NCBI GenBank assembly: GCA_963716745.1
Contig: OY970320.1
Span: 2,304,001-2,368,000 of the forward strand
DNA length: 64,000 bases
From: an uncultured Gemmatimonadaceae bacterium
GTDB lineage: Bacteria; Gemmatimonadota; Gemmatimonadetes; Gemmatimonadales; Gemmatimonadaceae
Direction: 5' to 3'
The translations under genes and the position numbers were made by a program. The notes below the pieces were generated by a model, which saw only the letters and a program-made list of their open reading frames with translations, was not told where the DNA came from and searched no databases. This document shows positions 1,808 through 61,021 of this stretch, in pieces. Each line of letters opens with the position of its first letter. Positions within the stretch are counted from its first letter, which is position 1.

Positions 1808-1991
1808 GGTTGCAGAGAACAGTAAACAGTCACGAGTACCTGCCAGTCGACAGTCAACAGCTCATAGGTCACAGAGAACGGATCAGCTTTGGGAGAGATC
1901 TCTCTCCCATTCGTGATCCGCTTTCTGTGACCTGTTGACTGTTGACTGTCGACTGGCAGTCACTCGTGACTGTTTTCTGTTGACTGCAACC
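1808..1991. repeat. long inverted-repeat element, copy 1 (empty)
   Basis: arm GGTTGCAG..AACAGTAAACAGTCACGAGT..CCAGTCGACAGTCAACAG..CACAGA and its reverse complement ending CTGCAACC, around a short hairpin spacer. Confidence 0.95.
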
Positions 1992-7774: not shown

Positions 7775-7811
7775 GGCGGGGGACTTCGGCGGCATCACCA
7801 GGGGGCTTAGG

Positions 7812-7996
7812 GTTGCAGTCAACAGCAAACAGTCACGAGTACCGGCCAGTCGACAGTCAACAGCTCACAGGTCACAGAAAACGGATCACGATATGGGCGA
7901 GCGATCTCTCCCTTATTCGTGATCCGTTTTCTGTGACCTGTTGACTGTTGACTGTCGACTGGCAGTCACTCGTGACTGTTTACTGTTTTCTGCAAC
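7812..7996. repeat. long inverted-repeat element, copy 2 (empty)
   Basis: same arms as copy 1, inner stem GAAAACGGATCACGA/TCGTGATCCGTTTTC; lies between convergent genes. Confidence 0.95.
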
Positions 7997-9091
7997 TCAA
8001 TGCACACTGGTGGCTCGCGCCGTTGCAGTTTCAATCGACCACAACAGGATCTCCCTCGCTCTCATGACCCACGCGCGGTAAGCGGCATTATTCGTGCGCG
8101 CAGGCAATCGCGAAATCCCATCAAGATCGAACGCCGCCCCCCACGCTCCCAATCCCGCCTTCACCCCATCAAGCGCATTCAGCATTTGCTCAACATGCCC
8201 CTCAACCGGCACCATGAACACCGCTTTCCCCAACACCCCCGCCTCCGCCACCGACTCGAATCCCGCAGTCGACACCACGCACTTACACCCCGCCATCATC
8301 TGCAGAAATAACTCTCCGTCCAGTCGATGGAACGTCAAAGTATCGTCATGCCGAAATTCCTTCGGCGCACCAGGCTTATCATAGAAACAATGGATCTCCG
8401 TCTCCGGATGCCGTCCATGCCACTCGAGCACATGCTCGGCGTAACCATGATTCACCATATAGACCAAGACGAAATGCCCGGCGGGATCGGTCTCCAACTC
8501 GAATAGATGCTTCCTCAGCAACGGCGGTGCGACGGACATTCGTTCGTGCGGCAGATCCGGCGCCTCATAGTGTGACAGCGCCAGCCACGAAGACCGCGCG
8601 CCCACAAGCCGAGTGTACCACATGAGCCCCGCCTGCTGCGCGCGCATCTCGCGCATGTTCGGGAACGCGGGATGTTCCTGCAGGAACTGATGCCCGAGCG
8701 CGATGATCGGCGGCCGCGCGCGATACGCAAGCGCGTACACGCCCGTGAGCACTTCGTAGAAATTCAGGATCACATCAGGACTCCGCTCGCGCACGAGCGT
8801 CGCGAGCGCGCGCACGCTGCGCGCATACTCAGGCAGTCGCCGCAGCGCCCTCGCGATCGTGGCCGGCATATTCACCGACCGATTCCCCGTGAACGCGAAC
8901 TCCAGCGTCGGGATCACCGTCAACGCCACCGGCATCGCCGAAGCGAAGTAGTCCGGCAATTTCCTCTCGCGCCCCATCCCGACCACCACGCCCACGATCT
9001 CGTGCCCCGCGCTCTCGACGATCTCCTTGGCCGCCATCGCCTGGGTCAAGTGACCCCGTCCCTCGCCCTGTACGCAGAAGAGGATTCGCAT
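7997..9091 (-). CDS. glycosyltransferase, GT-B fold (MJ1255/VC2487-like)
   Basis: MRILFCVQGEGRGH N-terminus; STAGFES..EA..LGK...VPVEGHVEQ..NA C-terminal motif. Confidence 0.85.
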   Translation of the reverse strand: MRILFCVQGEGRGHLTQAMAAKEIVESAGHEIVGVVVGMGRERKLPDYFASAMPVALTVIPTLEFAFTGNRSVNMPATIARALRRLPEYARSVRALATLVRERSPDVILNFYEVLTGVYALAYRARPPIIALGHQFLQEHPAFPNMREMRAQQAGLMWYTRLVGARSSWLALSHYEAPDLPHERMSVAPPLLRKHLFELETDPAGHFVLVYMVNHGYAEHVLEWHGRHPETEIHCFYDKPGAPKEFRHDDTLTFHRLDGELFLQMMAGCKCVVSTAGFESVAEAGVLGKAVFMVPVEGHVEQMLNALDGVKAGLGAWGAAFDLDGISRLPARTNNAAYRAWVMRAREILLWSIETATARATSVH

Positions 9092-9902: not shown

Positions 9903-10088
9903 GGTTGCAGAAAACAGTAAACAGTCACGAGTAACTGCCAGTCGACAGTCTACAGTCAACAGGTCACAGAAAACGGATCACGATTCGGCGCGATGCATCG
10001 CACGCTATCGTGATCTGTGTTCTGTGACCTGTGAGCTGTTGACTGTCGACTGGCAGTCACTCGTGACTGTTTACTGTTGACTGCAGCC
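9903..10088. repeat. long inverted-repeat element, copy 3 (empty)
   Basis: same arms; lies between divergent genes. Confidence 0.95.
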
Positions 10089-11016: not shown

Positions 11017-11158
11017 ACCGCCGGCAGTCGTCATGCATGTTGGGCTCGCGGCGGTGTCTTATGAGTTCACCGCGGTTGCGAGTTAGGGGTCGTGATGGCG
11101 GCTGCCGGCTGTCCCTATTCACTACTGACTGCGAACGACTGTCACCAGCGCGGGGAGA

Positions 11159-11342
11159 GTTGCAGTAAACAGAAAACAGTCACGAGTGACTGCCAGTCGA
11201 CAGTCAACAGTTCACAGCTCACAGAAAACGGATCACGATAGGGCGAGAGACCTCGCCCCTCCTCGTGATCCGTTTTCTGTGACCTGTGAGCTGTTGACTC
11301 TCGACTGGCCGGTACTCGTGACTGTTTACTGTTCACTGCAAC
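11159..11342. repeat. long inverted-repeat element, copy 4 (empty)
   Basis: GTTGCAG...CTGCAAC arms, inner GGATCACGA/TCGTGATCC stem. Confidence 0.95.
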
Positions 11343-11360
11343 GCCGGATGTCTCTGATGG

Positions 11361-13363: not shown

Positions 13364-13402
13364 GGCGTGTGTCCGGAGTGGGGAGTACGAGGGTGCTTAG
13401 AA

Positions 13403-13581
13403 TTGCAGTCAACAGCAAACAGTCACGAGTGACTGCCAGTCTACAGTCAACAGTCTACAGCTCACAGAAAACTGACTGCGAAAGGCCGCAAACAGCAATG
13501 GCCCCATTGCGCCGCTTTCTGTGACCTGTTGACTGTTGACTGTCGACTGGCAGTCACTCGTGACTGTTTTCTGTTTACTGC
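13403..13581. repeat. long inverted-repeat element, copy 5 (empty)
   Basis: same arms, different spacer; flanked by GCTTAG (13395) and CTAAGC (13586). Confidence 0.95.
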
Positions 13582-13591
13582 CGCCCTAAGC

Positions 13592-16093
13592 TCACTCAGA
13601 GCGAAGTGCAGTCAACGGATCGACCTTCCCAGCCCGTCGTGCCGGTACCAAGCTTGCCACCGCAGCGACACCCAGCAGTACCACCCCCACTCCCACGAAC
13701 ACCACCGGATCATACGGCGAAACCTGGAACAACATCGGCCTCACCCACTTTCCTGCCACCGCCGCGATCCCGCCGCCGATGATCACTCCCACCGAAGCCA
13801 AGATCATCCCTTCGCCGAGCACTAATCTCACGACATCCGAAACCTGAGCCCCGAGCGCGACGCGCACGCCCAATTCATGCGTCCGCTGAGCAACATTGTA
13901 CGCGATCACGGAATACAACCCGATCGCTGCCAAGATCAATGCCAACACTCCGAACACAGTGAACATCGCCGCGCCCAGCCGCCATGATTGCGTCTCGCGT
14001 CCAACGATGTCCGAGAAGGGAGTCACGGTCACGTAACTCGCCCCCGGCATCACGGCCTGCAAGCGCTTGCGCAGTGTCTCCCGATCCGCCGGCCGCGCGC
14101 CATTCGTGCGCACGAGGATCGCGGAATGATTCGCCTGATTCTCCTGCGCGGCGCTCAGGTAGTAGAAATAACCCGGATCGTCCGAGAAATTGCGCGACTT
14201 CGTATTCTCCGCGATCCCCACCACATACGTGCACGGCATAGTGTCGGATCCGACTTTCATGCATTGCCCAAGTGCGTCGGTCTTGGGCCACAGCACCTTC
14301 GCCATCGCCTCGCTCACCACCGCCGACCTCGGCGCACCCGCGACGTCGGTCGCCGTGATCCCTCGGCCTCGCACGATGCGCGTGCCCACCGTATTGAAGA
14401 AATCGGGCGTCACCGCGTTCATATCGAACTCGCCGAGCTTGTCCACCGAATCGATCCCGGCCACGTGGAGGTCCTCGCTCCACATGCTCCAGAAGGGGAG
14501 CGTCGCGCTCAGCGCCACGTGCTCGACGCCCGGCGTGGCCTTCGCCGTCTCGAGCAGGCTGAGCAGCAATTGCTCGGTATGCGCGCTGTCCAACTTCACG
14601 CCGCGCATGATCGGATCGATCACGGTGACCCGCGTGGCGTCGTAGCCGAGGCTCATGGCATTGACGTTGTGCAACGAGCGCACGAACAGGCCCGCGCCCA
14701 CGAGCAGCACGACGCTCAGCGCGCCCTGGAATACGAGGAGTCCAATGCGCAGGCGCGAACAATGCACCGCGCCCTCGCGCGCTCCGGCCTTGAGATCGAG
14801 CGTGAGATCGGCGCTCCGCGTCTGGACGATCGGCGCGAGCCCGGTGAGCAGACCAGCCACGAGCGCCGCGAGGCCGGCGAAGACGAGAACTCGCGGATCG
14901 CCGATCACCGCGGCGCCTTCGGTCTTGGGCAGCATGGTCGTGCGCAGAATGCCGCCGCCCAATTGTGCGATCACGATCCCCACCACGCCGCCGAGCGCGG
15001 CGAGCAGAACGCTCTCGGTGAGCAATTGCGCCGCGAGCCGGCCGCGGCTCACGCCGAGCGCGAGGCGCACGGCCACTTCACGTTTCCGGCGCAGTGCGCG
15101 CGCGAGCAACAAGTTCGCGACATTCGCGCAGGCGATGAGCCATACCACGACCGCGACGCCAGCGATCCAGCCTGCGACCTTCGCCTCGCTCGATTGCTGC
15201 GGCCCACGCTCGGCTAATATCAATGCGACGATCGCGTGTGGCTTCGCCAGTTCGGGCGGTGTCTCGTTCTTGTCGGCCGCGGCCTGCGCGGCGTATTCGC
15301 GCTGAAACGCGCCGCTGATGTCCGCCGTAGCCTGCTCAAGCGAGACGTCCGGCTTCCGCTCGGCGATCATGCGTGCCCACTGCCAATGATACGTCACGTC
15401 CCACGACTCGCCGAGCAGGCGGAGGCCTTCGCCCAGCTCGTGACCGTACGCCGAGATCGGGATGAAGGCGGCGGGGGGCTGCGACGGCGAGAGTCCGACG
15501 AAGCCTGCCGGCGTGACGCCGATGATCGTGTAGCGCGTGGCGCCTATTTGTATCGGCTGCCCGATCGCATCGGCGCGTCCGCCGTACTGCGTTTGCCAGA
15601 GTCCGTAGCTGAGTACTGCGACGGCCGTACCGACCGGCGCGACATCTTCGCTCGCGGTGAAGTAGCGGCCGGCGGCAGGCGGCGCAGTGAAGAAGCCGAA
15701 GAAGGAGGCGCTCACGGCGGATACCTGCATCTCGCGCGAATCGAGACCGTCGCCGATCGCGAGCTTGCGGTCGAACATCGCCGCCGTTCGCGTGAAGGAA
15801 TTGGTCTCTTTCGTGAGATTCTGGATCCGCGCGTAGGGCAGGGAACCGCCCGCGAATTCTTTGCCGCGATAGCTGGTGGCGAGATAGATCCTGTGCGTGC
15901 GCGCGGGGTTGGCGAGCATGGGCGGAGCGCGGAAGAGCAGTTGATCTACTATGGAGAAGATCGCGGCGTTGGCTCCGATGCCGAGTGCGAGCGTGAGGAT
16001 CACGGCGACGGTGAAGCCCGGTTTGTTCTTGAGACCGCGGAGGGCGTAGGTGAGGTCTTGTTTTGTCGCTTGCCAGCGGCTTTCGGTGGACAT
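13592..16093 (-). CDS. ADOP-family duplicated ABC transporter permease
   Basis: LTLALGIGANAAIFS, LIACANVANLLLAR, QRTHELGVRVALGA, PARRA..VDPLTALRSE. Confidence 0.9.
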   Translation of the reverse strand: MSTESRWQATKQDLTYALRGLKNKPGFTVAVILTLALGIGANAAIFSIVDQLLFRAPPMLANPARTHRIYLATSYRGKEFAGGSLPYARIQNLTKETNSFTRTAAMFDRKLAIGDGLDSREMQVSAVSASFFGFFTAPPAAGRYFTASEDVAPVGTAVAVLSYGLWQTQYGGRADAIGQPIQIGATRYTIIGVTPAGFVGLSPSQPPAAFIPISAYGHELGEGLRLLGESWDVTYHWQWARMIAERKPDVSLEQATADISGAFQREYAAQAAADKNETPPELAKPHAIVALILAERGPQQSSEAKVAGWIAGVAVVVWLIACANVANLLLARALRRKREVAVRLALGVSRGRLAAQLLTESVLLAALGGVVGIVIAQLGGGILRTTMLPKTEGAAVIGDPRVLVFAGLAALVAGLLTGLAPIVQTRSADLTLDLKAGAREGAVHCSRLRIGLLVFQGALSVVLLVGAGLFVRSLHNVNAMSLGYDATRVTVIDPIMRGVKLDSAHTEQLLLSLLETAKATPGVEHVALSATLPFWSMWSEDLHVAGIDSVDKLGEFDMNAVTPDFFNTVGTRIVRGRGITATDVAGAPRSAVVSEAMAKVLWPKTDALGQCMKVGSDTMPCTYVVGIAENTKSRNFSDDPGYFYYLSAAQENQANHSAILVRTNGARPADRETLRKRLQAVMPGASYVTVTPFSDIVGRETQSWRLGAAMFTVFGVLALILAAIGLYSVIAYNVAQRTHELGVRVALGAQVSDVVRLVLGEGMILASVGVIIGGGIAAVAGKWVRPMLFQVSPYDPVVFVGVGVVLLGVAAVASLVPARRAGKVDPLTALRSE

Positions 16094-16190
16094 TTTCGGA
16101 GCTCCGCGAGGTGGTCGGGATTTGACACCAAACTATTCCCGACGGTTGGCTGGGTTGCGGACGAAACTACTGTCGCCAGGACGCTTAGAA

Positions 16191-16365
16191 TTGCAGTGAA
16201 CAGTAAACAGTCGCGAGTACCGGCCAGTCAACAGTCTACAGTCAACAGGTCACAGAAATCGGGTCAGCGCGACGGATGATCCAACGCGCATGGAGCAGTT
16301 TTCTGTGACCTGTTGACTGTAGACTGTAGACTGGCAGTCACTCGTGACTGTTTACTGTTAGCTGC
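16191..16365. repeat. long inverted-repeat element, copy 6 (empty)
   Basis: same arms; spacer related to that of copy 7 in the opposite orientation. Confidence 0.95.
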
Positions 16366-16436
16366 CGCCTTCCCCCGGGCCGGACTTTCCGGTAGTGTCG
16401 TACCAACCCTCCCCCCACCGGGTGTGTCGAACGATC

Positions 16437-18911: not shown

Positions 18912-18946
18912 CGGGCAACTGCGTTCCACCCACCAGCGCCGGTAGC

Positions 18947-19124
18947 GTTGCAGTCAACAGTAAACTGTCACGAGTACCTGCCAGTCAACAGTCTACAGTC
19001 AACAGGTCACAGAAAACCGTTCCACGTGCGCCAGGAGCTGCCGTCGCGCTGAGCCGATTTCTGTGAGCTGTTGACTGTTGACTGTTGACTGGCAGGTACT
19101 CGTGACTGTTTACTGTTAGCTGCC
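18947..19124. repeat. long inverted-repeat element, copy 7 (empty)
   Basis: same arms. Confidence 0.95.
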
Positions 19125-19204
19125 GCCTTCCCAGCCTGGTGGCCGAAGTCTTTTTTCAGTATCGCGGGTAATACTGCACTATCCCTCACCATAGTAGGCG
19201 CCCC

Positions 19205-19654
19205 ATGCATCTCCCAAAGTCCTCCCTCCTACTCACCGCCCTCGTAGTCGCCGCCTGCAATAATTCAACAACCCCAACCTCACCCGCCGCGAGCAGCGCG
19301 GCACCGGGCGACACAACCCACGTCGCGCCGAATACAATAATCCTTTCCGGCCACGTCTTCGCCATGCAAGCGACTCCCGCCGCGATGGGATCGGATACGC
19401 TGCACTATATCCCCATCGCGAACGTCAGTCTGCGCTTGATGCATAATATTCTCGTGAACGGCAATTCCGCGCAGGAGCTTGCGGGCAATGCTATCTCCGC
19501 GGCGGACGGCAGTTATCGATTCCCGAATCTCCCGAGCGGCTACTATGTCCTCTACGCCACGCCGTCGAGCGCGTCGGGATATTCTGGATCGTATTCGTTG
19601 GTGCCGGGCCAGAGTGCTAGTACGGTTGTGGATGTATTCGTCTGGAAGAATTGA
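19205..19654 (+). CDS. putative lipoprotein with a carboxypeptidase-regulatory-like beta domain
   Basis: lipobox VAAC; DGSYRFPNLPSGYYVLYA motif. Confidence 0.7.
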   Translation: MHLPKSSLLLTALVVAACNNSTTPTSPAASSAAPGDTTHVAPNTIILSGHVFAMQATPAAMGSDTLHYIPIANVSLRLMHNILVNGNSAQELAGNAISAADGSYRFPNLPSGYYVLYATPSSASGYSGSYSLVPGQSASTVVDVFVWKN

Positions 19655-19694
19655 CGAGAAGCCAACTGCGGCCTGACCACTTGCCGTCACTAGC

Positions 19695-19852
19695 TTGCAG
19701 AAAACAGTAAACAGTCACGAGAACTGCACCGCAGTCTACAGTCAACAGTCAACAGCTCTCAGAAAACGGCGCTACGTTGAACCACTTTCTGTGACCTGTT
19801 GACTGTAGACTGTAGACTGGCAGTCACTCGTGACTGTTTACTGTTCCCTGCC
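19695..19852. repeat. long inverted-repeat element, copy 8 (empty, short spacer)
   Basis: same arms, with a degenerate left internal palindrome. Confidence 0.9.
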
Positions 19853-35100: not shown

Positions 35101-36987
35101 TCCGCAGACAGCGCCGCGATGCATCGAATCCAAGTCACACACCGTGGGACCCACCGATACACGGTTGCTCTCACGGCTGATTCCGTCGGCTACTTACGAA
35201 CGGTCGCCACTACGGCCGATGGCTCTACGTTGAAATCGGTCGCTCTCGACTACGATCTCGTAGGCCGATTGGCCTCGCTCACCGTGGGCGGCAATCAGAC
35301 ATCTCTCTCCTACAATAGAGATGGTATCCTCACGCAGGTCGCTCTTCCTACCCTCCCTGTGTTCTACGTCTATGACTCGGTGACCGCGGGCCACATGCCG
35401 TTCAAGGCGGATTACTCGATTACCGCCCTCGATCAGGCGTTCGGTGCGATCTACACGAGAGACACTTTGGATCGTATCGTGCAGCGCACGAAAGTGGCCC
35501 TCGATACGAGTTGGACGTACGCCTACGGCAATCTTGGGCGACTGACGGCGTATCAGGCCCTGAGTGACACTTCTGCGGAGACGTGCACACCTGATCAATT
35601 TCACCAGGATGGCCAGATCTGCACGAGCGCGCACGGACAGAAGGTGATCACACAGTCGAATTTCACGTATGACTCCGTGGGGAACCGAACCGACAATAGT
35701 GCAGTGCTCATCGCCGGCAATCGACTCACGAGCTTCAATGGCTTCACGCTTTCGTACGACTACAATGGCAACCTGACACACAAGTCCACCACGGGCTTCG
35801 ATCAGTACTATTACTGGAACAGCATTGGTGAGCTCGACAGCGTCAAGACCTTGAGAAGTGGAGTCGTCGATAGCGTCAGCTTCGGCTACGATGGATTCGG
35901 GCGCCGGGTGCGGAAGAGTCATATCGGCCATACGCTGCGCTACGTCTACAACGGCGACGACGTGATGGCCGAGATCGACTCGGCGACGGGCGCGGCGGTG
36001 CGCGTCTATACGTACTATGGACCGGATGTCCCACACTCTGTGACAAAGCAGGGAAAGACCGAGTACTATTTGCAGGACTTCGCGGCTGGACACGTCGTTG
36101 CGCTGATCGACAGCAACCGGGTAGTACGCGAGCGTTATCGCTATGGCCCGTGGGGGCAAGCGGAGGATTCGATGATAGCGGACACGGTCGCTCAGCCATA
36201 CCGCTACGCTGGAGGCACCTACGACCCCGAAACGCAACTCTACTATTTCCGCGCGAGGTACTACGATCCAGCGTTAGCTCGCTTCATCTCCGAAGATCCT
36301 ATCGGTCTCGGTGGCGGCATCAATCAGTACGCATACGTGCAGGATCAACCCATCGACGCGAGTGATCTGAGTGGAATGGTAGTAATAAAGGCGTGCCCCT
36401 ACGCCTTGCCTGACGGATACTACGTGTGTCGCCTTCCGGGAGGGCAGCTACTCATCAACAACGCCTCGTCGGCTATCTCTGGTCTGATTGGGATGCCTGC
36501 CTGCCTCCCTGAGGATTTGGGATGCTGGTACCCAACCGGCGATGATTCGCCGAAGACGGGAACTGGGGATTCATTGATGGATGCGTCGCTGAAGTTTGAG
36601 AAGTGCTTGCGGGACGGCACGGATCCCACAGGCTGTATTCCACAACCGCCTTCGGTGTCTGTAGCGTGCGGTGGCGACACCGGGCAGTACTTGTTCCAGT
36701 GCGACTGGTGGGTGGTAACGATCGTGGAGGCTCCGATGTTTTTCGTTCCGACCGATCCCAAGGGTGCGAGCAAGCCTACATTGCCTTACGATCCGATTCT
36801 CAAGTGCGCGATGGACACCGCCTGTCCCGTAATAGGGGCGGCCTCTTCACCGAAGCGCTACGAGTCTAGCTTCCCTGCGATAACATCCTCCGCGACGGGC
36901 TACTGCTCTAACATTGAGGCACTCGCGGCGGGAGCGGCACTCATTTGGGAGAGGTTCAGTGCAATCCTCATGGCGTGTTCACAATAG
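32152..36987 (+). CDS. RHS/YD-repeat protein with signal peptide, Ig-like N-terminal region and Cys-rich C-terminal domain
   Basis: many YD repeats; RHS core YYFRARYYDPALARFISEDPIGLGGGINQYAYV..P....DLSG; hydrophobic N-terminal signal. Confidence 0.92.
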   Translation: MSSSPRSVASRRFLSLSTMAAALIMLAVPAQRLVAQCSGQLQTISPCTISFRYPTSTVAQAVNYLITNSNRINAASYSLTCTPSPSSLASCSVPGVVVVPAGGSKGFAMHFTTGSAGGSGTITVSASGGNDDLSATVNLTVDPMSITPKGAVAVDTPSTAYKQIFVVRNTSFTPDTLNITVSCDAAIASTCTRSPTSLILGAGTSANDTVSYTTQGENKTGLVRLIGVMSTHSTVADTGWVSVSVPAPQPPVVSALPTNGDNHAAALCLLQCFDMVTSYSTPSYTSRDEPRSATLVYNSAQAAPMGEVAFDVTDPTLRAPVISLSLQRPNGSNVTFTNGNTELYWNDSIPGATARVSAQFYDSTLTTGVYDYTAIVKLRWTKHLDSGTVTQTNVPVQVLIVNERASVYGAGWSLAGAQRLYFPALPDTNMILVSDGEGGLARFARWGPLTANPAAADFSTITTVKSGGTITGYVRGYADSTNLRFSATGYLLSVKNRFGDSTRYHYDASNRVDSIIDPAGKALVLAYSSNKISTITDPGGRVSQFTVNANGDLATIKDPTGATTFTGTYDTTSAPTTAKRHHLLQRTDRRGSSWIATYDFAGKIATDSTPPVYADSATKRIGKRYQSLEVAQLIDPGSGLGTSTTNYAPELISSNVRLLVTASNGDFMRYAVDRFGASTLVEHPWGLSTETITRDANSLPTRALSVLNGKTLVNQVVVYSLNGSPITQVDSLTKGTTTISYDTKYNLVTSVSGAVATVFANFLNATKSWVDSTRFGVCCSDSTVIYVHDTHGRTTLVRDQQRDSTVYSFAADASFGNLLSIQFGNRLTQIRYDGYGRAVRVLNPKRDSLTVSLDSLNRARSVTDPEGAAVTYGYDSLYLKSVTDRKGQSYSFARDALGWVDTLTNSNSGDSLTHRLDIFWYSARGSTIAHFDRQTPRVRTSFTYDSLGRLHSRTLGNGQTTTYAYDPSGLSRAASNGESIDTLSADSAAMHRIQVTHRGTHRYTVALTADSVGYLRTVATTADGSTLKSVALDYDLVGRLASLTVGGNQTSLSYNRDGILTQVALPTLPVFYVYDSVTAGHMPFKADYSITALDQAFGAIYTRDTLDRIVQRTKVALDTSWTYAYGNLGRLTAYQALSDTSAETCTPDQFHQDGQICTSAHGQKVITQSNFTYDSVGNRTDNSAVLIAGNRLTSFNGFTLSYDYNGNLTHKSTTGFDQYYYWNSIGELDSVKTLRSGVVDSVSFGYDGFGRRVRKSHIGHTLRYVYNGDDVMAEIDSATGAAVRVYTYYGPDVPHSVTKQGKTEYYLQDFAAGHVVALIDSNRVVRERYRYGPWGQAEDSMIADTVAQPYRYAGGTYDPETQLYYFRARYYDPALARFISEDPIGLGGGINQYAYVQDQPIDASDLSGMVVIKACPYALPDGYYVCRLPGGQLLINNASSAISGLIGMPACLPEDLGCWYPTGDDSPKTGTGDSLMDASLKFEKCLRDGTDPTGCIPQPPSVSVACGGDTGQYLFQCDWWVVTIVEAPMFFVPTDPKGASKPTLPYDPILKCAMDTACPVIGAASSPKRYESSFPAITSSATGYCSNIEALAAGAALIWERFSAILMACSQ

Positions 36988-37084: not shown

Positions 37085-37130
37085 GTGCCTTGTATCCGTG
37101 GCTGGAACGGTGGCCCGACCGCGCTGCGAT

Positions 37131-37183
37131 TGTCGCAAAGTGTCGCGCGACAACCGGGCTTTGTCGCGCGACACTTTGCGACA
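37131..37183. promoter_or_regulatory. second copy of the 23-bp inverted repeat, upstream of rhs2
   Basis: arms identical to 31978-32030, different 7-nt spacer. Confidence 0.75.
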
Positions 37184-37244
37184 ATGGGACCGCGGCAAAA
37201 AATGAACTCCTTGCAGCCTAGTCACTTAGCGCAGTAACAGGTGG

Positions 37245-37301: not shown

Positions 37302-40300
37302 ATGTCGCTCAGCCATGTTCTTGCGCCTTTGTTCGCCGTCATTGCTGTGGTTCCGCCGACACCCCCGGCACCCGCGACCGCGCCGAGCAGTGCGCCGACG
37401 CCGACGCGCCTCTTCTTGTGCCCCGGGACGGTCGAGCAGCTGAGCCCCTGTACGGCTTCAGGGAGCACGACCACGAACAATCAGTTCCAAGAGGTATACG
37501 GGCTCTCGAACAACTCGATCGAGGATGATGACGTATCGATCGAGCTCTCCGGCCTGTCGAGCTCGATAGCGACGTGCACCTCGAACGTCCCCGACGTGAC
37601 CGTTCGATCGCATGGCGCCGCCAATTTCATCGTGACCTGCACAGGTGGCGCTGGCGGAGGCTCGGGAAATCTGACTGTCACTACCCTCGGCATCGCGGAA
37701 CTCACTTCCACCTTGACCGTGACGGTCACCGCCCCGAGCACCATTTCCGTGACTCCACAGACCACGTTGAACACCACGGCCCTTCCGAATACGGCTTACA
37801 AGCAGATCTACACCATCACCAATCTCTCCAGTACGGCAGTGAGCGATAGCACGTTCGTCACGTGCGACGCGGGCGAGACCTCGTGTTCGGTGAAGCCGAG
37901 AGTCCTATCGCTCGGCGGGAACGCCTCGGGAACGGATACCCTTTTCTATTCATCGGTTGGTTCAGGTACCAGCGGAACCGCGACCCACACGGCTAAAGTG
38001 ACCGGTCAACCGAACTCCGTTGCGACGAGCACGATCTCTGTGGCCGTGCCCGCTGCAATGGCGCCGAGCGTGGGTTCCTACCCGCAGAACGGCGACATTC
38101 GCTCGCCCGGGATGTGCGCTGTGTCCTGCCTCGATAAAGTCGCAGCGTTCAGCACGCCAGCATACACCAGCTATGACACCCCACGTTCCGTGACGCTCTT
38201 CTACTCGAGCGCACAGGCCGCGCCAATGGGAGAGGTCCAGCTGCAGGTTGCTAATGCGAGTGCGCGCCCTCCGAATCGAGATGTCGCTCCAGCTGCAGCG
38301 CCCCAATGCTAGCTTCGTGACGTTCACGAACGGCGCGAACGAGCTCTTTTGGAGCCAGCCCTCGACCGCTTTTTATAGGATTGGAGGGCAGTTCGACGCG
38401 AGTATGCTCACGACCGGGGTGTATAACTACACCGCCATCGTGAAGTCCCGCTGGACGCTGCACGGACCCGATAGCGGTACCGTTACGCAAACGACCGTGG
38501 CCGTGAAGGTATTGATCGTAAACGGGCGAAATGGATCTTACGGCACCGGCTGGTCGGTGGCGGGCCTGCACCGCCTTCGCTTCCCGGTTGCGCCGGACAC
38601 CCTCACGATCCTGGACACCAATGGGTCCGGCGGGATTGTGCGATTCACGCAGGCGTCGAAGAATGCGGTGGCTGTCCCAGCGGCGGCAGACTATACCACG
38701 ATCACCACCACACTGAGCGGATCGACCGTCACCGGCTATAAGCGGATCTTCCCGAGTGGCGACACGCTCTTCTACTCATCCACCGGCTACCTGATCCTCT
38801 CGAAGAACCGGCTTGGCGACAGCACGCGCTTCCACTACAACGCGAGCTCGTTGTTGGACAGCATCATCGATCCAGCGGGGAAGGCGGTGAAGCTGCTCTA
38901 TACGGGGAACGGGTTGTTCAGCATCACGGACCCTGGTGGCCGCGTGACCATGTTCAACATCGCCGCGGTCGGCGGCGATATGCAGAACATCACCGACGCA
39001 ACGGGCACGATCGCGTTCGCCGGGACCTACGATGCCTCACATCGCCTGACGCAGGCGATCGACCGGAGCGGCACGAACACGTGGCTGAGCCGCTACGACT
39101 TCGCCGGCAAGCTTGCATCGGACAGCACACCGGCCGTATGGGCGGATAGCACCACAGCCAGAATCGGCGGACGTTATCATTCGCTCCAATCGGCCTTCCT
39201 CATCGACCCCGCCTCTGGGAAGGGCACGGCAGCGAACGCCGCAACTCCCGTGCTGGAGGATAGCATTCGCGTGGCGGTCGTTTCGCCAAGCGGCGATTCT
39301 GTGCGATACGCCCTGGATCGGTACGGGGCACCGACGATCACCGACATGCCGAATCAGAAGACCACGATCGTGACCGCGCGGAACCCCGACGGCACGGTGT
39401 ATCACTCGATCACGACGGCGCGGGGAAGGGTGGTCTCCACGATCTGGACGTGGTGGGTCAACGGCCAGGTGATCACGACCACGGACAGCATCACAAACGC
39501 GACGATCGTCTATACATACGACAGTAAGTACGGTTTACTGACGGACGTCGGTGGGAATACGACTCCGGTAAAGAACTTCCTGAATCTGGCAAAGAGCTGG
39601 GTAGACAGCACCCGCACCGGAACGTGTGGCGCATGCACCGACAGTGTGACGCGGTACTCGCACGAATCGCACGGCCGGCTTAACAAACTCATCGATCCGC
39701 AGCTCGACACCACGGTGTACACTTTCGACACGGCGAGCGCAGGATTCAAGAATCTGCTCTCGACTCGGCAGGGCCCTCATACCACCACTCTCCGGTACGA
39801 CGGGTATGGTCGAGCAGTCCGTGTGATCAATGCGCGCGGAGACAGCGCGATCGTATCGCTCGACTCGCTCAATCGGACCAGGAATGTGAAGGGCCCGCAG
39901 GGCAGCATTGTGTCATACACTTACGACCCGCTCTTCCTGCGCACCGTCACGGACGCGAAGAGTCAGGTTTATTCGTACTATCGGAATGCGCTCGGCTGGA
40001 TGGACTCCGTGGTGAATGCGAACACCGGTGACCCGGCCGCTAATCGTGTGGATAAGTACGAGTACAGCAAGCTGGGGCTGACCAAGGCGCACATTAACCG
40101 TCGAGGTCAGCGCACGAGCATGACCTATGACCAACAGGGCCGCCTGCTCACGCTCAACCTTGCGGGTGGACGCGTCTCGAACTTCGCGTACGACACAGCG
40201 GGTCTCTGGGCGAAGGCCTGGAACGGAGAGTCGTTCGACAGTATACGCACGGACAGTACGGGCCTCTGGACGGTCCAGTACACGAAACGTGGGACGCACT

Positions 40301-42230
40301 GGTTCACGGACAGCTCCACGGTGGATATCACCGGTTTGCCGCAATCGTTCACCGTCAAGGGGGAGACCAGCACGTTGTCCGCCATCACGTATGGCTACGA
40401 CTCGAATCGACGTCTTAATTCGATGACGGTCGACGGTAAGCTCACGAGCTTTGTCCACAACCGCGATGGCATGCTGACTTCCCTGAGTCTCCCAACCTCA
40501 CCGCAGCAGACCATCGGTTTTTCAGTCACGCGCGGCCACGAGGACTATTCAGTAACGTACTCGAAGCCGCCGAACACTCTCTACGATCAGCTCGCTGCAT
40601 ATCTCAACTTTGACTCGCTCGGCCGGATCCGTCAGCGGATCAAGCTGCGCCAGGATACGACAAGGTCGTACGCGTACGATTCGGTCGCGCGACTGACCAA
40701 TTATCAGGTCTTGCAGGACACCTCGGCATTGAGCTGCCTCGTCGATGCCGCGGGCTTCGCGGGAGAGCGTTGCACGAGCGCGCACGGCGAGAAAGTCCTT
40801 TCTCAAACGACGTTCACATACGACAGCGTCGGAAACCCGACCGATGGCGGGGCGACAGTCATAGCCGGCAATAGATTGACGGCGTACAATGGCTACACTC
40901 TCACGTACGACTACGACGGCAACCTGACACATAAGCACAGTTCGACGTTCGACCAGCTTCTCTACTGGAACAGCATCGGGCAGCTCGACAGCGTGAAGAC
41001 GGGTACATCGCTAGTCAGCTATGGCTACAATGCAATGGGCCGTCGCGTACGCAAGACCACGGCGACCCAGTCTCTACGCTACATCTACGCCGGCAGTCAG
41101 ATGATCGCCGAGATAGATTCGGCCACCAATAGCGCGGTTCGGGTGTACTCCTATTACGGCACGGAGCCCCCCACAGCGTGAAAACAGCCACGGGTACCTA
41201 CTATTACATATCGGAAATGGGAACAGGTCACGTCGTCGCGCTGATCGACAGCCTCAATGTGGTGAAGAATCGGTACCGCTATAGCCCGTTCGGCCAGCTC
41301 GAGGATTCGAGCGAGACGATTCTTCAATCCGATCCGCTTCGCGGGCCGCGAATACGATGCGGAGACCCAACTCTACTTCAATCGCGCGCGATACTACGAC
41401 GCGAAGTCTCCGTCGGTTCGTGTCGGAGGACCCCATCGGCCTCGGCGGCGGGATAAACCAGTATGCGTACGCGAGCAATGACCCGATCAATCATCGGATC
41501 CGTGCGGTCTATTCTGACTGTTGGACCTCGACAGGAGTGCCCCGCCAACTAGGCGTCGAAACAGACGGCAGCTGCAGTGCATGGCGGCAGCGCGGGCGGC
41601 GGGGGCGGTGGTGGTGGCGGCGCCGGCGGGGATGGTGGACACTACGATTACGAATCAACCTACCACGAAGGCGGAGCTGTTGTGGTAGGCAATACTGGTG
41701 GTATTGGGGCCTGTAACCCAAATGTAATGGTGGGCGCAGATTACAAATGGTGCAATTCTAGCGGCGGACTGGTCGCGGGGGTCAACGGATACTGGACCTC
41801 TACTCTGGCCTGGGTTGCCAATGGTGGAACAATGTCAATGCCGCAGCCAATGAGTGGCGGCGGGGGCGGCGGTGGTGGTGGAGCCGACGGAAGTTCCCCG
41901 GCGTCTAGAGAGACGTTTGGGCAATGCCTGCTCAATAAGAACAAAGGCCTCGCGACAGACTTGTTGGTGGCGACAGGCATCGTTACGCCGATTGCGTACG
42001 GCATGTCGGTGGAATCAGGCGGGGCCGCCGCAGGCGCTATCGGAACTGGCGTCGCTAGGGGGCTCGGAACATTCGGTATCAGGACTCTCGTCGCGGAGGG
42101 CGCGACGGCGGCGACGGAGGGCGCTGCGGTCGCTGCTGGCGGGGCCGCACTTGCTGGCGCTGGATTCATTGCGTCGATTGTGCTAGTTACAGAGGCTGTC
42201 TTGGCGGTGGAGTGTGCGAACCACTGGTGA
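37302..42230 (+). CDS. second RHS/YD-repeat protein, paralogue of rhs1, split by several frameshifts (near 38270, 41170, 41330-41580)
   Basis: AGGAG RBS; ORFs 37302-38312, 38248-41181, 41178-41456, 41357-41716 and 41577-42230 are collinear with rhs1 (SAQAAPMGEV, IIDPAGKA, EDPIGLGGGINQYAY). Confidence 0.85.
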
Positions 42231-46804: not shown

Positions 46805-46871
46805 TGATTTCTTTGGAGAAATATTTTCACGCACTACGGCACGACTCACGACATCACTTGCACATCCAACC

Positions 46872-47501
46872 TTGCAGTCAACAGTAAACAGTCACGAGTG
46901 ACTGCCAGTCAACAGTTCACAGTCAACAGCTCACAGAAAACAATTCAGCGTGCGCTGCTGTGATGATGACGATTGGAAAGTTTGGAGGTAGCATGCGCGA
47001 TGCAGATCAGAAGTCATCGGGATCTCATCGTGTGGCGGCGCGCGATGGAGTTCGTGGCGGAGGTGCACGGCCTCAAGCGGAAATTCCCCGCGCGTGAGGG
47101 GAAGGAGTTGTGGAATCAGCTCCTTCGCGCGGCGATGTCCGTGCCCTCGAACATCGCGGAGGGTGCTGGTAGAACCTCTCGCGGTGACTACGCTCGGTTT
47201 CTGTCGATCGCCCGCGGCTCCATACAGGAGGCCGATACTCATCTCGCGATGGCCGTCGCCTTCGGCTACTTGCGACCCGAGGACATCCACCGGGCCGAGG
47301 CACTGAGCTACGAGGTACTGCGGATGCTCACGAAACTCGCGAGCGTTCTCGCCAAGCCCGCGCCCGAATCCGCCACGATGTGAAAAGGGAGGTCGGCCGC
47401 GCACATTGCGCTCGGCCGCCTCCCCGATCCGCTTTCTGTGACCTGTTGACTGTTGAGCTGTTGACTGGCAGTCACTCGTGACTGTTTGCTGTTGACTGCA
47501 G
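46872..47501. mobile_element. long inverted-repeat element, copy 9, carrying a four-helix-bundle gene
   Basis: left arm 46872-46940 and right arm 47433-47501 match the arms of the nine empty copies; mobility is inferred, not shown. Confidence 0.75.
47000..47383 (+). CDS. four-helix-bundle protein (23S rRNA IVS protein family, Avd-like)
   Basis: GGAGG RBS; SHRDLIVW..AM, QL.RAAMSVPSNIAEG.GR, FLSIARGS..E..T.L signature. Confidence 0.92.
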   Translation: MQIRSHRDLIVWRRAMEFVAEVHGLKRKFPAREGKELWNQLLRAAMSVPSNIAEGAGRTSRGDYARFLSIARGSIQEADTHLAMAVAFGYLRPEDIHRAEALSYEVLRMLTKLASVLAKPAPESATM

Positions 47502-47536
47502 GGTGAAGCGTGCAGGTGGCGCAGTGCAGCCGTCCG

Positions 47537-48290
47537 TTAAACCTTGTGGTAAAGGATCCTCGCCGCCTCCCGGCGATCTTCCGCCTGATAAACCTCAAAA
47601 TCCCCAAAAAACCCCGGCGCAATCCCCTGCAACACGCGCAACACCGAAATCGCACATCGCCGTATCTCCTGCTCCGCCCCTTCTCCACGACCGCAGTTCC
47701 AGCATCGTCCGCCAAGCTCTCGCATTCCCCGTCACAACGATCTTCGTCTCCGTCGCATTAGGCAAACCGCCCGCGCCGCCTCACGCGCCATCTTCCGGCG
47801 ATGGACCTTGTCCGCGATCCATCCATACCGCTCCATCAACGCCTCCACCATCGCGATATATGCCGCCAACGCCGATTCCATCTGCGCCTTCCACGCAGTC
47901 TCGAGCGCCGCATCCCCGATCACGGCCGGCGGGATCACGAAATTGGCATCGGTCTCGTCAACATACCGCTGCGAGAGCTGCGAATACGCGAACCCCGCCC
48001 GGTGACGCACCAACTCATGCGTCAGCGACCGGCTCACACCCTCCAAGAGCAACGAATAATTCGCATGCTCGAGCACCGATCCATGACCCTGCTTCTTAAT
48101 GTTCTCGAGATAATCCCGCGTCGTCCTGCTCGCCGGATTCTTCTGACTCATATAACACAACCGCCCCGCGAACTCGGCGAGGCGCTCCCCGTCCGTACTC
48201 TCGCCCATCCACTTCACCGGCAAATGACTCGGGCTCTTTGAACGCCGGCTGGGACAGAACGGTTATGACGGGTTCAGCGAAATATTTCAT
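47537..48290 (-). CDS. thyX: FAD-dependent thymidylate synthase, apparent frameshifts near 48230, 47770 and 47690
   Basis: GRLCYMS, GHGSVLEH, SRSLTHELVRHR..F.YSQLSQRY, REAAR, PNATETKIVVTGN. Confidence 0.9.
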
Positions 48291-50839: not shown

Positions 50840-50850
50840 CGCCGGAACTG

Positions 50851-51886
50851 CAGACCTAGACGCTAGATCTAGACGCTAGAAGGCAACTGCAACTAGAATC
50901 GCAACTACGGGCTGTTGGCTGTCGGCTGTCGCCTGCTTGCGACAGTCGACAGCCGACAGCCCGTTCTTGCTGTGGCTGCGGCAGTTTAGCGTCTAGGCCT
51001 GCACTTCAGTATCTCGCTCCCCCCACCGGCACCTCGGCAGCGAGAGACCACCGCATTCCATCGCGCGAGAGGATCAGGAACGCTGCGGCCTCGAGGTGGC
51101 CGGGCTCCACCGAGCGGCGCTCGCGCAACGTAGCGTATAGCATTGCGGTATTCGCATCCGGCGTGATGCCGGGGATGCTGAGCGAGAGGATGCCGGGGAG
51201 GCTGTCCAGCGGAAGGCCCGCAAGGACGTCGGTCACGACGCTCTCCTTCATCGGCTCCTCGGCGCCAGGCGCGAGGATGTGCCGCACGGTGGAGGAATCG
51301 AGGAATGTCTCCTGCGTGCTACCAACCACGTATCCGAGATGTCCGTCGAGCCAATGACTCGTCGCGTTCGCCGCGCGATAACTCGTTAATAAGCTGTCGA
51401 GCATGCCAGGCGGCACGACTCTGCGCAATGCGGTGATGATGCTTGGATCGGATAGATGCACCGCACCCGATTCGCTTTGCATTTGCAATAGAACGACACC
51501 GCGGCGGTACTGGTTGGCGTACTGCAATGGATGGTATACGGTATCGATCACCGCGACGTACAGCTCATCTTCTTGCGGCACGACGCCCTTTTCGCGCGGA
51601 TTTCCCCGTAGCGGCGTGCCCGCGAGGGCGCCGGCGACGAGAATGAGCCAGATGCCGCCGATCATGAGCGCCGGCGCTATCAGTTTATTGCGCGACATGG
51701 CTGGGCGAGCGCACCGCAACGGCAGGCTGTTGACTGTCGGCTGTCGCCTGCTGGAACATGATGATCATGTAAATCATGTAAATCCTGTCCAAGTATTTCG
51801 GTTCGCGACAGCCGACAGCCGACAGCCCGTAGTTGCAGTTGAAGTAGCAGTGGCCGTCTAACGTCTCAGTCTAGAGTCTAAGTCTG
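50851..51886. repeat. ~82-bp imperfect terminal inverted repeats (50851-50932 / 51805-51886) enclosing one ORF
   Basis: GCAACTACGGGCTGTTGGCTGTCGGCTGTCGC pairs with GCGACAGCCGACAGCCGACAGCCCGTAGTTGC (one mismatch) and extends outward through CTAGACG-type repeats; each end also forms a local hairpin. Confidence 0.8.
51006..51698 (-). CDS. hypothetical exported or membrane-anchored protein
   Basis: N-terminal hydrophobic segment, ~230-aa ORF. Confidence 0.65.
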   Translation of the reverse strand: MSRNKLIAPALMIGGIWLILVAGALAGTPLRGNPREKGVVPQEDELYVAVIDTVYHPLQYANQYRRGVVLLQMQSESGAVHLSDPSIITALRRVVPPGMLDSLLTSYRAANATSHWLDGHLGYVVGSTQETFLDSSTVRHILAPGAEEPMKESVVTDVLAGLPLDSLPGILSLSIPGITPDANTAMLYATLRERRSVEPGHLEAAAFLILSRDGMRWSLAAEVPVGGARY

Positions 51887-51890
51887 TCGT

Positions 51891-52259
51891 TCAGTTCCAG
51901 CCGCCGCCGAGTAGGACATGGAGGGCGGAGAGCGTGAATTCGATGATGGCGCCGATGCTGATGAATGCGGCGATCCAGCGCAATGATTCATACGCCGTCG
52001 TGACCGCCTTCGGCGGGTTGGGGGTGGCGTGCGCATAAGTGAGCGCGCGGTCCACGAGTCCCCAGAACGCCGTTCCGGTGGCGGCGATTAGGAGCATGCC
52101 GAGCATCCATGCCTTCGGCCATGCGAGGAGGATCACCGTACTGCCGAAGAGTCCGGCGCTGAGCGCCGCAACGAGCGAGCGGATGCGCAGGGCGCGCAGC
52201 CGCGCCGCAACGTTGCCGATGGCCGATGGCCGATGGTCGATGGCCGGATCGTCCGCCAC
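51891..52259 (-). CDS. hypothetical membrane protein
   Basis: three hydrophobic segments; GTG start coupled to the ppk2 stop. Confidence 0.6.
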   Translation of the reverse strand: MADDPAIDHRPSAIGNVAARLRALRIRSLVAALSAGLFGSTVILLAWPKAWMLGMLLIAATGTAFWGLVDRALTYAHATPNPPKAVTTAYESLRWIAAFISIGAIIEFTLSALHVLLGGGWN

Positions 52260-53400: not shown

Positions 53401-55026
<1,626 letters not shown>

Positions 55027-55034
55027 ACCGCAAT

Positions 55035-55250
55035 TGCAACGACTTTATGGGGATAACTAACCGGATGCTAGCGGATCAAATGGATTGCTCCGTGTGGCGG
55101 GATGGATCGCACAGCCGCGACTGGCGTTGTGTTTTTGTTGTTAACAACAAGAACGCGGACTCGATCGCGCGCCTAGGAGCTTCCGGCGGGCAGGAGGCAA
55201 TCCATTTGATCCGCCAGCATCCGGTTAGTTATCCCATTAGAGTCGTTGCA
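55035..55250. repeat. long palindromic element between thiC and thiS
   Basis: ~57-bp arms TGCAACGACT..GGGATAACTAACCGGATGCT.GCGGATCAAATGGATTGC and their reverse complement. Confidence 0.9.
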
Positions 55251-55270
55251 CCTGCAGTTGGAGGTTTGCA

Positions 55271-55466: not shown

Positions 55467-56265
55467 ATGCACGACCCACTCGTGATCGGCGGCAAGTCGT
55501 TCGGCTCGCGCCTGATGCTCGGCACGGGCAAGTATCGCGATCTTGCCGTGATGAAGGACGCCTTCGAATGCGGCCGCGGTCGAGATCGTTACCGTGAGCA
55601 TCCGCCGCGTGGAACTCGGCGCGCCGGGGCACACGGGATTGATGGATGTGCTCGCGAAGGGGAGCTATCAGCTGCTGCCGAACACCGCCGGCTGCAAGAC
55701 CGCCGAGGAAGCCGTGCGCGTCGCGCGGCTCGCGCGCGCGATGAGCGGCACCGAATGGCTCAAGCTGGAAGTGATCCCCGACGCGAAATATCTGCTGCCG
55801 GATCCGGTGGGTACTTTGCGCGCGGCCGAGATCCTGGTGGGGGAGGGATTCACCGTTCTTCCCTATATGAATGCCGATCCCGTGCTCGCGCGGCAGCTCG
55901 CGGCGGCGGGTTGCGCGACCGTGATGCCTCTGGCGTCACCGATCGGCAGCGGCCGCGGAGTGCTCACGCGGGCGGCGATCGAGATCATCATTGAGGAGAG
56001 TACTGTGCCCGTGGTGGTGGACGCGGGACTCGGCGTGCCCAGCGAGGCCGCGGCGGTGATGGAGCTCGGGGCGAATGCGGTGTTGGTGAATACTGCGATC
56101 GCGGAGGCGGAGTCGCCTGTTCAGATGGCGGCGGCGTTCAGGAAGGCGGTGGAGGCTGGGAGGATGGGGTATTTGGCTGGACGGATGCCGATTCGGGCGC
56201 ATGCTAGCCCGTCGAGTCCTGTGGCGGGGGTTGTTACGTTGCCTCAGCCGGAGGTTCCTGCCTAA
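55467..56265 (+). CDS. thiG: thiazole synthase, apparent frameshift near 55570
   Basis: [49 protein letters not shown]. Confidence 0.93.
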
Positions 56266-56274
56266 CTGCGGTAC

Positions 56275-56479
56275 GGCGGTCAACAGTAAACAGTCACGAG
56301 TGACTGCCAGTCTACAGTCAACAGTCAACAGGTCACAGAAAACGTCTCCACGAACAAACGGGCCTCCCGATCGCTATTCAGGATCGAGAGGCCCGTTCCT
56401 TCGTGATCTGACTTCTGTGAACTGTGAGCTGTTGACTGTCGACTGGCAGTCACTCGTGACTGTTTACTGTTGACTGCAG
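56275..56479. repeat. long inverted-repeat element, copy 10 (empty)
   Basis: same arms, internal hairpin AACGGGCCTC..GAGGCCCGTT; lies between convergent genes. Confidence 0.95.
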
Positions 56480-56487
56480 TGAGTAGT

Positions 56488-60665: not shown

Positions 60666-60758
60666 CACGCCCGGGGAGTTTGGGGGACCCTAAAGATGCC
60701 CGGGTGGAGCGTGGATGGTAGTCGTGGGGGTCCCGTGCAGCCTCGGGTTCCGCGCGCG

Positions 60759-60997
60759 GGAACACAAGTATCACGGTTCATGTTTAACGGGATGAGCCGG
60801 ATGTGGACGGATGCGCAGGATCGCTCCATGCGCCGACACGCGCTCTCAGACGCGCATCCGTCTTGTCGTTGTAGTTAACCACAAATACAGCGGCGTGATT
60901 CGGCGCACGGAGCGCATCCTCGCGCATGGAGCAATCCGCCGCATCCGTGCCATCTCCGCTGCATCCCGTCAAATATGAACCGTGATACTTGTGTTCC
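60759..60997. repeat. long palindromic intergenic element
   Basis: GGAACACAAGTATCACGGTTCAT.TTT.ACGGGATG arm and its reverse complement, continuing inward through CGGAT repeats. Confidence 0.9.
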
Positions 60998-61021
60998 AGG
61001 GCAGCGTGAACCACGAGGCGC

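Follow-up and report, generated by a model that had tools for sequence, protein, structure and literature searches.

A four-helix-bundle gene between long inverted repeats

We analyzed a stretch of 64,000 nt (hereafter the window, numbered 1-64,000) from the genome of an uncultured Gemmatimonadaceae bacterium of soil, a single contig of 3.29 Mb with 67% G+C that is referred to below as G000. The window contains a gene for a 127-aa four-helix-bundle protein enclosed by two long arms, one being the reverse complement of the other; we call this gene-bearing unit a cassette, or filled copy, and the hairpins built from the same arms and lacking the gene are called empty or gene-less copies. The features of the filled locus are the following.

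46845..46871, no strand: outer module on the left-arm side (..CATCACTTGCACATCCAACC), belonging to the palindrome; the inverted repeat starts at 46855
46872..46940, no strand: left arm of family A, consisting of TTGCAG, CAGTNNA units phased by 7 nt and CACAGAAAA; best period 7
46916..46944, plus strand: promoter-like TTCACA-17-AACAAT sequence at the gene-proximal end of the left arm, directed toward the gene; a consensus match only
46984..46988, plus strand: GGAGG ribosome-binding site, 11 nt 5' of the ATG, recognized by sequence
47000..47383, plus strand: 127-aa four-helix-bundle gene, PF05635 / TIGR02436, by profile matches
47387..47424, plus strand: G+C-rich stem-loop directly 3' of the stop codon, seen in the sequence and paired in the computed fold
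47433..47501, no strand: right arm of family A, by inverted repeat and blastn
47502..47530, no strand: stretch directly outside the right arm, within the outer extension of the palindrome, by inverted repeat, sister-genome comparison and outer consensus

The inverted repeat of the filled copy pairs 46855-46919 with 47454-47518 (86% complementary, separation 534 nt), and a 69-nt arm was placed by blastn at 46872-46940 and 47433-47501. An earlier sequence-only reading had set the limits of the element at 46872 and 47501; the arms do lie there, but the palindrome reaches about 25-30 nt further out. Its outer consensus CaCCaGggcgcTtAg is common to the family-A copies, and an outer module ..CAtCACCAGgGCGCTTAGrr is found in most of them, often with AACTGC just before it. 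The ORF (open reading frame) runs from the ATG at 47000 to the stop codon at 47381-47383 and is the only one inside the cassette; GATCCGCTTTCTGTG comes after the stem-loop at 47387-47424. Terminal inverted repeats closing the ORF into a stem-loop are thus present at the locus, and when 46840-47535 was folded as a single strand, one long stem with the gene in its loop was obtained (dG -384 kcal/mol, z -13.2). The promoter-like site is a weak match (1 found, 0.3 expected); an mRNA of the gene begun there, should the site be active, would not include the left arm.

With up to 3 mismatches allowed, a 22-nt arm core was matched 18 times in the window, compared to 0 in 100 shuffles, and in an inverted-repeat search of the window these matches pair up as ten hairpin loci. 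The distance between the arms is 491 nt in the filled copy versus 18-68 nt in the nine empty ones. The ten arm-bounded loci of the sequence-only reading were therefore recovered at the positions it had named, nine of them around a short spacer, and its description of a complete gene with a GGAGG site inside the arms, followed by a hairpin, was accurate as well. Its statement that the window shows no transposase, integrase or reverse transcriptase agrees with a Pfam scan (E <= 1e-5), in which none of these families was found among 41 window ORFs. A scan with Rfam gave no family over the hairpins and no rRNA match. In contig sets of four soil or rhizosphere DNAs only short pieces of the locus were found, with no joint across the cassette.

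The protein matched PF05635 with an E value of 1.7e-31 (109 bits, cut-off 33.8) and TIGR02436 with 7.2e-30 (103.4 bits, cut-off 24). It contains the conserved Q..R...S...NIAEG and GS..E motifs, and in an alignment of 16 members residues Q40, S47, N51, E54, G55, S74 and E77 are invariant. The nearest solved relative is 2gsc_A (E 5.4e-24), and 2rld_A is a further one; both entries hold five chains, and a five-part ring assembly of the four-helix bundle is predicted for the present protein by its sequence relation to these two structures only. PF05635 is, to our knowledge, a very large family with an assigned function only within diversity-generating retroelements. Avd, the accessory protein of those elements, is a distant relative and binds nucleic acid; the bAvd profile (PF22296) gave weak matches to two paralogues in G000 (E 0.0016-0.0076), below its cut-off. 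PF05635 is handled as Avd-like in PMC10053308.

The cassette lies between an ATP-grasp gene (D-Ala-D-Ala-ligase-like) and a thyX-like gene, both on the minus strand, and the cassette gene is therefore antisense to both. The thyX-like gene (47537-48223) is broken into two minus-strand ORFs, 47732-48223 and 47537-47725, and the Thy1 profile was matched over positions 6-140 of 191 only. Contigs from three DNA runs all have an extra G after 47764, which makes a one-base error of the assembly the probable cause of the split; further frameshifts of the genome, such as that of the cassette gene at locus L007 (see below), may likewise be errors.

Each PF05635 gene of the genome has its own hairpin family

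A PF05635 search of G000 returned seven loci: four full-length genes, two of a divergent subtype and one frameshifted gene. PF05635 loci are numbered here from L001 onwards, the cassette of the window being L004 and its hairpins family A. All seven lie between long inverted repeats (arms of 39-76 nt, 427-548 nt apart), and no two of them have the same arm sequence. Each pair of arms also occurs as gene-less copies: 41 in the L001 family, 36 in L002, 17 in L003, 27 in L004, 10 in L005, 21 in L006 and 16 in L007, giving 168 gene-less copies with one filled copy per family. This demonstrates the pairing of gene and hairpin family. Among the seven families no filled copy with another cargo was seen; filled copies with random genes were an outcome which the sequence-only reading had named as one that would speak against it.

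Spacing between the arms is bimodal over 175 paired copies, being either <=139 nt or 450-576 nt with no intermediates; an extra L003 pair 937 nt apart consists of two adjacent copies. A strict scan for close inverted repeats gave 126 loci, none of which was matched by more than one family. The seven families account for 72/126 of them, and the other 54 (~43%) belong to families without a resident PF05635 gene, including those with ACAGGAT units (13 strict copies), CGGGACT units (8) and other palindrome types. Cassettes with CGGGACT units are loaded in relatives (L154 on contig C20 of genome G002, L010 in G001), and a loaded copy of the 13-copy ACAGGAT family was not found. The proposal that L004 is a gene-bearing form accompanied by non-autonomous empty copies is thus favored by the pairing of genes and families, but not by the 54 strict loci whose families have no resident gene.

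Examples of ACAGGAT and CGGGACT hairpins are found at 765129-765224 and 823123-823224 of G000. A genome-wide inverted-repeat scan with loops of 150-3000 nt yielded nothing beyond pairs of adjacent empty copies and palindromes of other families. A palindrome with ~70-nt arms (GGCTAGGCCGCTTTCGCTCAAACC..) occurs in five copies, its arms enclosing 220-290 nt of variable, apparently non-coding sequence (sites G000:555025-555375, 1674778-1675127, 2671414-2671835 and 3116302-3116606).

The nine gene-less hairpins of family A in the window, none of them assigned to a strand, are these.

1808..1991: hairpin 1, between co-directional genes; site taken in G005 by a hairpin from a different family
7796..8012: hairpin 2, present in G005
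9903..10088: hairpin 3, between divergent genes
11159..11342: hairpin 4, with arms of opposite polarity to those of hairpins 1-3
13389..13597: hairpin 5, between two minus-strand genes; its outer repeat ends on the stop codon of the upstream gene
16193..16365: hairpin 6, between divergent FtsX/MacB-type genes
18950..19123: hairpin 7
19695..19851: hairpin 8, short form with 18 nt between the arms
56273..56480: hairpin 9, after thiG

The L004 locus is the single gene-loaded member among palindromes of roughly 180-240 bp, whose inner lengths are discrete (about 19, 40-45, 69-74 and 92 nt). Many empty copies have GTACCNG on one arm and GTGACTG on the other and share an inner module, CGGATCACGA..TCGTGATCCG, whereas in the filled copy both arms show GTGACTG and the CGGATCACGA module is missing. 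Since the arm asymmetry and the inner module belong to the empty copies and not to the filled one, the former descend from a gene-less founder, each having been copied as a whole unit. Those whose inner parts are nearly identical sit 2-5 kb apart, and eight copies are gathered within 18 kb of the window.

Gene contexts rest on 2631 genes predicted by a crude codon-usage caller (80% coding). Of the 168 gene-less copies, 80 are placed between co-directional, 47 between convergent and 17 between divergent genes, and 24 are inside a gene call; convergent placement is enriched, with 47 of the 144 classified copies compared to 226 of 1248 intergenic gaps of at least 100 nt. Gene-less copies lie a few bases after stop codons (median 12 nt to the adjacent stop codon versus 76 nt to the adjacent start), and the closest sister copy tends to be a few kb away. 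At the outer ends of several unrelated families the motif AACTRC is found in a fixed orientation, at 99 of 352 ends versus 6 of 352 in the opposite orientation, its background being 94 in 5000 random 60-mers; it may serve these families in common as a signal for recognition or insertion. Examples are at 56255-56272 and 50846-50852 of the window, and the motif contains or adjoins stop codons.

Flanking repeats and turnover in relatives

The repeats on the two sides of PF05635 genes in other genomes were scored by comparing 300 nt of left flank to the reverse complement of an equally long right flank. Of the PF05635 loci of the order, 34/36 scored above the 99th percentile of 400 random genome positions, with L031 and L032 as exceptions, and 31/36 were above the control maximum. 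Further loci in the genus scored high in 19 of 20 cases, the twentieth being at a contig end. A wider search for related loci, seeded by a four-member alignment, gave 80 loci from ~20 phyla, three of them with flanks too short for scoring; scores above 15 were found for 62/77 loci versus 2/148 shifted controls, and scores above 18 for 50/77 versus 0/148. The suggestion that paralogues of the gene are generally flanked by inverted repeats is thus borne out in 7/7 loci of the genome and in most loci of the two wider sets.

Among 82 arms scoring at least 18, period 7 was the best in 69, with units sometimes of 8-10 nt, and the upstream arm is G-rich on the sense strand of the gene (G 40%, C 18%). 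Protein identity averaged 60.5% for 21 pairs sharing the same unit versus 49-54% for pairs with different units, a trend that is only suggestive because the protein and unit sequences are related and not independent; the same-unit set includes an Acidimicrobiia/Terriglobia pair with 70% identity.

In ten other genera of the family (one of them represented by an unpublished genome, G012, on which no conclusion depends) the genes flanking the L004 cassette are adjacent, and the gap separating the aligned parts of the two is 251-601 nt versus 1020 nt in G000; a simple motif screen of seven of these other-genus loci detected no four-helix-bundle ORF between the flanking genes. Within the genus, the site is filled in G000, G001, G002, G003 and G005, with cassettes that differ in arms and protein as follows.

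G002: family A arms, protein 99% identical to that of G000
G005: diverged family A arms, 71% identity over 70 aa, gene frameshifted
G003: arms of a 10-mer unit, protein 51% identical to that of G000
G001: arms of GTCCGTA-type heptamers, protein 50% identical to that of G000

The flanks in G003 and G001 are 77-79% identical to the DNA of G000. The unit pattern of the G003 cassette has 99 matches in G003 and 0 in G000, G001, G002 and G005; likewise, that of G001 has 99 matches in G001 and 0 in the four other genomes of the genus, and the reversed patterns used as controls gave 0 matches for both. These private patterns demonstrate that in three lineages the dispersed hairpins match the arms of the cassette resident in the same genome. 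A like correspondence is seen in other genera, with 57 arm matches and about 27 gene-less pairs in G016 and 23 matches in G006. On contig C66 of G001 the cassette at the orthologous site (L130/L132) shows the layout left arm, gene and then a complete gene-less hairpin composed of left arm and right arm.

The contigs of G002 are 97%, 92% and 83% identical to the corresponding regions of G000; as this mixture apparently reflects more than one strain, we treated them as separate relatives. On contig C19 of G002, 4 nt past a TAG stop codon, lies a cassette whose units are GGCCATC and whose gene is broken. The counterpart in G000 (1575277-1575349) has neither cassette nor hairpin, and the flanks align on both sides (91% over 686 nt, 89% over 556 nt). 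At L002, a region of 1.67 kb aligns with 83% identity and every arm unit is CGGGACT in the relative versus CGGGAAG in G000, the switch on both arms being a concerted change. At L005, contig C3 of G002 and G000 have flanks of 93% and 88% identity in the same orientation around an interior which is 75% identical and inverted, and at L007 identity is 94% in the left flank and 80% over the cassette and right side, with no alignment of the left-arm region. Three gene ends that bear a hairpin in G000 are without one in G003, in a comparison where the orthology of the second neighbour was not demonstrable. Turnover of cassettes and hairpins is demonstrated by these comparisons. With regard to the filled/empty polymorphism between relatives that the sequence-only reading had named as a check, presence or absence of a cassette and replacement at one and the same site were both observed, but the filled copy of the window itself is at a fixed orthologous site.

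DNA or RNA level

If stems were kept for the sake of one transcript strand, G:U mismatches would be favored on that strand. In the 80 co-directional empty copies, G:U-compatible mismatches numbered 171 on the sense strand versus 161 on the antisense strand, with 387 transversions (p 0.62), and in 82 loaded cassettes they were 78 versus 89, with 167 transversions (p 0.44). The idea that the cassette is an intervening sequence moved into mRNA space is not upheld by these results, since no bias toward any transcribed strand was detected and the gene is antisense to both neighbours.

Two types of enzyme were considered and rejected for the G000 genome: retro-mobility through a reverse transcriptase, as a search with RVT_1 gave no match, and mobility of the type of repetitive extragenic palindromes (REP) through a Y1 transposase, as Y1_Tnp (PF01797) gave no match in a search that was positive in 6/14 control genomes.

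Comparison with known systems

In its construction the locus resembles the intervening sequences (IVS) of 23S rRNA that bear an ORF, but it is placed between protein-coding genes. In PMC4990558, the Coxiella burnetii IVS is described with a terminal stem, which is cut by RNase III, and tandem heptamers beside an S23p ORF, and an old proposal by Ralph and McClelland is cited, by which the ORF of the IVS serves mobility. The cassette resembles such elements (Coxiella burnetii, and Leptospira as cited in PMC4990558) in having a PF05635/S23p gene in the loop of an inverted repeat, tandem heptamers near the ORF and a length of about 430-630 nt. It differs in lying outside rRNA, between the ATP-grasp gene and thyX, in having arms of 70-100 nt compared to the 28-bp stem given for Coxiella in the same source, and in having 27 gene-less copies and no sign of RNA-level constraint in the G:U test.

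As in the systems formed by REP sequences, their doublets (REPIN) and the associated transposase (RAYT), each family of short intergenic palindromic doublets has one gene, bordered by repeats of that family, with dozens of non-autonomous copies and several families in one genome. RAYT, however, is a Y1 HUH transposase, and in G000 there is no PF01797 match, the cassette gene encoding a 127-aa helical bundle with no known catalytic activity. Insertion sequences and their miniature inverted-repeat derivatives likewise have terminal inverted repeats common to one gene-bearing and many short copies, and presence or absence among relatives; unlike them, the cassette has no transposase, no target-site duplication was seen, and its arms are made of tandem 7-nt (sometimes 8-10-nt) units. 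To Avd of diversity-generating retroelements there is the likeness of related protein families, including the bAvd matches below cut-off; unlike these retroelements, G000 has no reverse transcriptase and no pair of template and variable repeats.

Bacterial heptamer arrays form another point of comparison, one of them being the cyanobacterial short tandemly repeated repetitive (STRR) sequences. Inverted pairs of GGGAATC in Xanthomonas and GGGGA(C/T)T arrays in Nostoc are reported in PMC4692102, and the cassette shares with such arrays the intergenic tandem 7-nt units, often in convergent inverted pairs. Unlike here, no four-helix-bundle or IVS gene comes with the arrays described in PMC4692102 and PMC4679880, where the terms for such a gene gave 0 occurrences in a search of the two texts. 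No published link between PF05635 genes and dispersed hairpin families was found in the literature searched, which covered few subscription journals and no supplements. New here are the flanking of all seven loci by inverted repeats, the private families, the arm swaps at one site and the presence/absence case.

Discussion

We interpret the cassettes as selfish elements resembling IVS that act at the DNA level, each PF05635 protein being a factor specific for its own family, with the chemistry carried out by host enzymes; we give this reading a probability of about one half. The protein would bind the repeat units of its own arms, as the five-chain solved relatives and the nucleic-acid-binding Avd suggest, and would thereby allow hairpins with its units to be copied or retained. 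The chemistry on DNA would be left to host enzymes of replication or repair, a proposal made because the genome shows neither a reverse transcriptase nor a Y1 transposase, and the oriented AACTRC at the outer ends of several families might be the common handle for this host step. Between the protein and the movement of the hairpins the relation is one of association only.

Several observations weigh against this interpretation. A cassette occupies exactly the same site in five genomes of the genus, and 7/8 of the window hairpins at 1808-19851 are positionally conserved in G005; with such fixed sites, movement must be slow, or is explained in part by homologous exchange of the ordinary kind among related genomes. 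Comparison of filled and empty sites gave no readable target-site duplication, the boundaries there being blurred by changed gene ends. G007 has only 8 weak arm matches, so that the relation of hairpins to the resident cassette barely holds there, and the 54 of 126 strict loci in families without a resident gene indicate that such a gene is not needed for a family to persist. We know of no catalytic motif in the protein. Filled arms are nearer to the family consensus than most empty ones in L002, L004 and L006, not in L001 and L005, the alignments of L003 and L007 being poor, so this test of the filled copy as master of its family gave a mixed picture. The L007 gene is frameshifted, as are several cassette genes in relatives (the G005 copy, L154), and the non-independence of protein and unit sequences limits the trend described for same-unit pairs.

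The hairpins might instead be RNA or transcription signals useful to the host, such as two-way terminators, 3'-end protectors or RNase III sites, with the proteins as family-specific regulators and each gene autoregulated within a hairpin of its own regulon. The short distance to stop codons compared to starts, the enrichment in convergent gaps and the cutting of the Coxiella IVS stem by RNase III (PMC4990558) are all in line with this, as is the conservation of seven of the eight sites in G005, where a hairpin of another family stands at the hairpin-1 site as if one of some kind were required. Such a function does not sit well with the lack of a G:U excess on the transcribed strand, transversions being as common as transitions, nor with 17 empty copies between divergent genes, the three gene ends that have a hairpin in G000 and none in G003, and entire families that differ between species of one genus; we consider it unlikely. 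It also seems improbable to us that the gene is a passenger, lodged in the loop of a resident hairpin that spreads by other means, or with its arms overwritten by conversion. Hairpin families without a resident gene do exist, the layout in G001 looks as if a gene and one arm had been added beside an existing hairpin, and the gene region of L002, which aligns with 83% identity next to arm units that have all changed alike, fits arm conversion; nevertheless, exactly one loaded copy in each of seven families is not expected from random lodging, loaded cassettes contain PF05635 genes only, the same layout is seen across many phyla and in rRNA IVS with no need for a resident hairpin family, and same-unit proteins are more alike, also across phyla.

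Finally, the gene-less hairpins could be wrecks of once-loaded cassettes that lost the gene by deletion between the arms, and the frameshifted genes of L007, L154 and the G005 copy of this locus might be taken as steps on that path. We hold this to be very improbable: intermediate sizes are absent among the 175 paired copies, many independent clean deletions would be required for 10-41 empty copies per filled one, and the arm asymmetry and inner CGGATCACGA module common to the empty copies are absent from the filled copy, which points to a common gene-less founder. The reading as selfish DNA-level cassettes can be extended, tentatively and with more doubt than confidence, to a general one: a PF05635-type protein might be the sole product of widespread mobile palindromes that have no enzyme of their own, its ring reading the 7-base units of its own arms and recruiting host replication or repair, each paralogue founding a private family, and the rRNA IVS and heptamer arrays arising as by-products.

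Other repeats in the window

Two further gene-less hairpins lie in the window on either side of a 237-aa gene, at 50845-50995 and 51713-51892. They belong to a second family, with CTAGACG and GACAGCC units, and have the same arms as the loaded cassette L003 (G000:2198503-2199069). A third type of palindrome, ~200-250 nt long with CGGATG-type units and a GTTGTTAACAAC centre, is found at 55026-55259 and 60754-61002 of the window and at G000:2203081-2203570; it is represented by 8 strict copies genome-wide, none of the type has a PF05635 gene, and one copy is placed between thiC and thiS. The sole Rfam match in the window is a TPP (thiamine pyrophosphate) riboswitch (RF00059, 53239-53337, 65.3 bits) upstream of thiC. 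At 37119-37195 a 35-nt inverted repeat (91% complementary, separation 7 nt) lies between two very large RHS-repeat genes, 32152-36984 and 38248-41178.

Significance

With seven pairs of protein and arm and 168 gene-less copies in one single-contig genome, and with arms swapped in sister genomes, G000 offers a 7 x 7 matrix of specificity. The findings bear on the origin of rRNA IVS, a question since about 1990, and on the excess of 7-base repeats in bacteria. If the protein does not drive the spread, the hairpins are still a major and fast-changing layer at the gene ends of this phylum; if it does, the cassettes would be a class of mobile element without transposase, integrase or reverse transcriptase.

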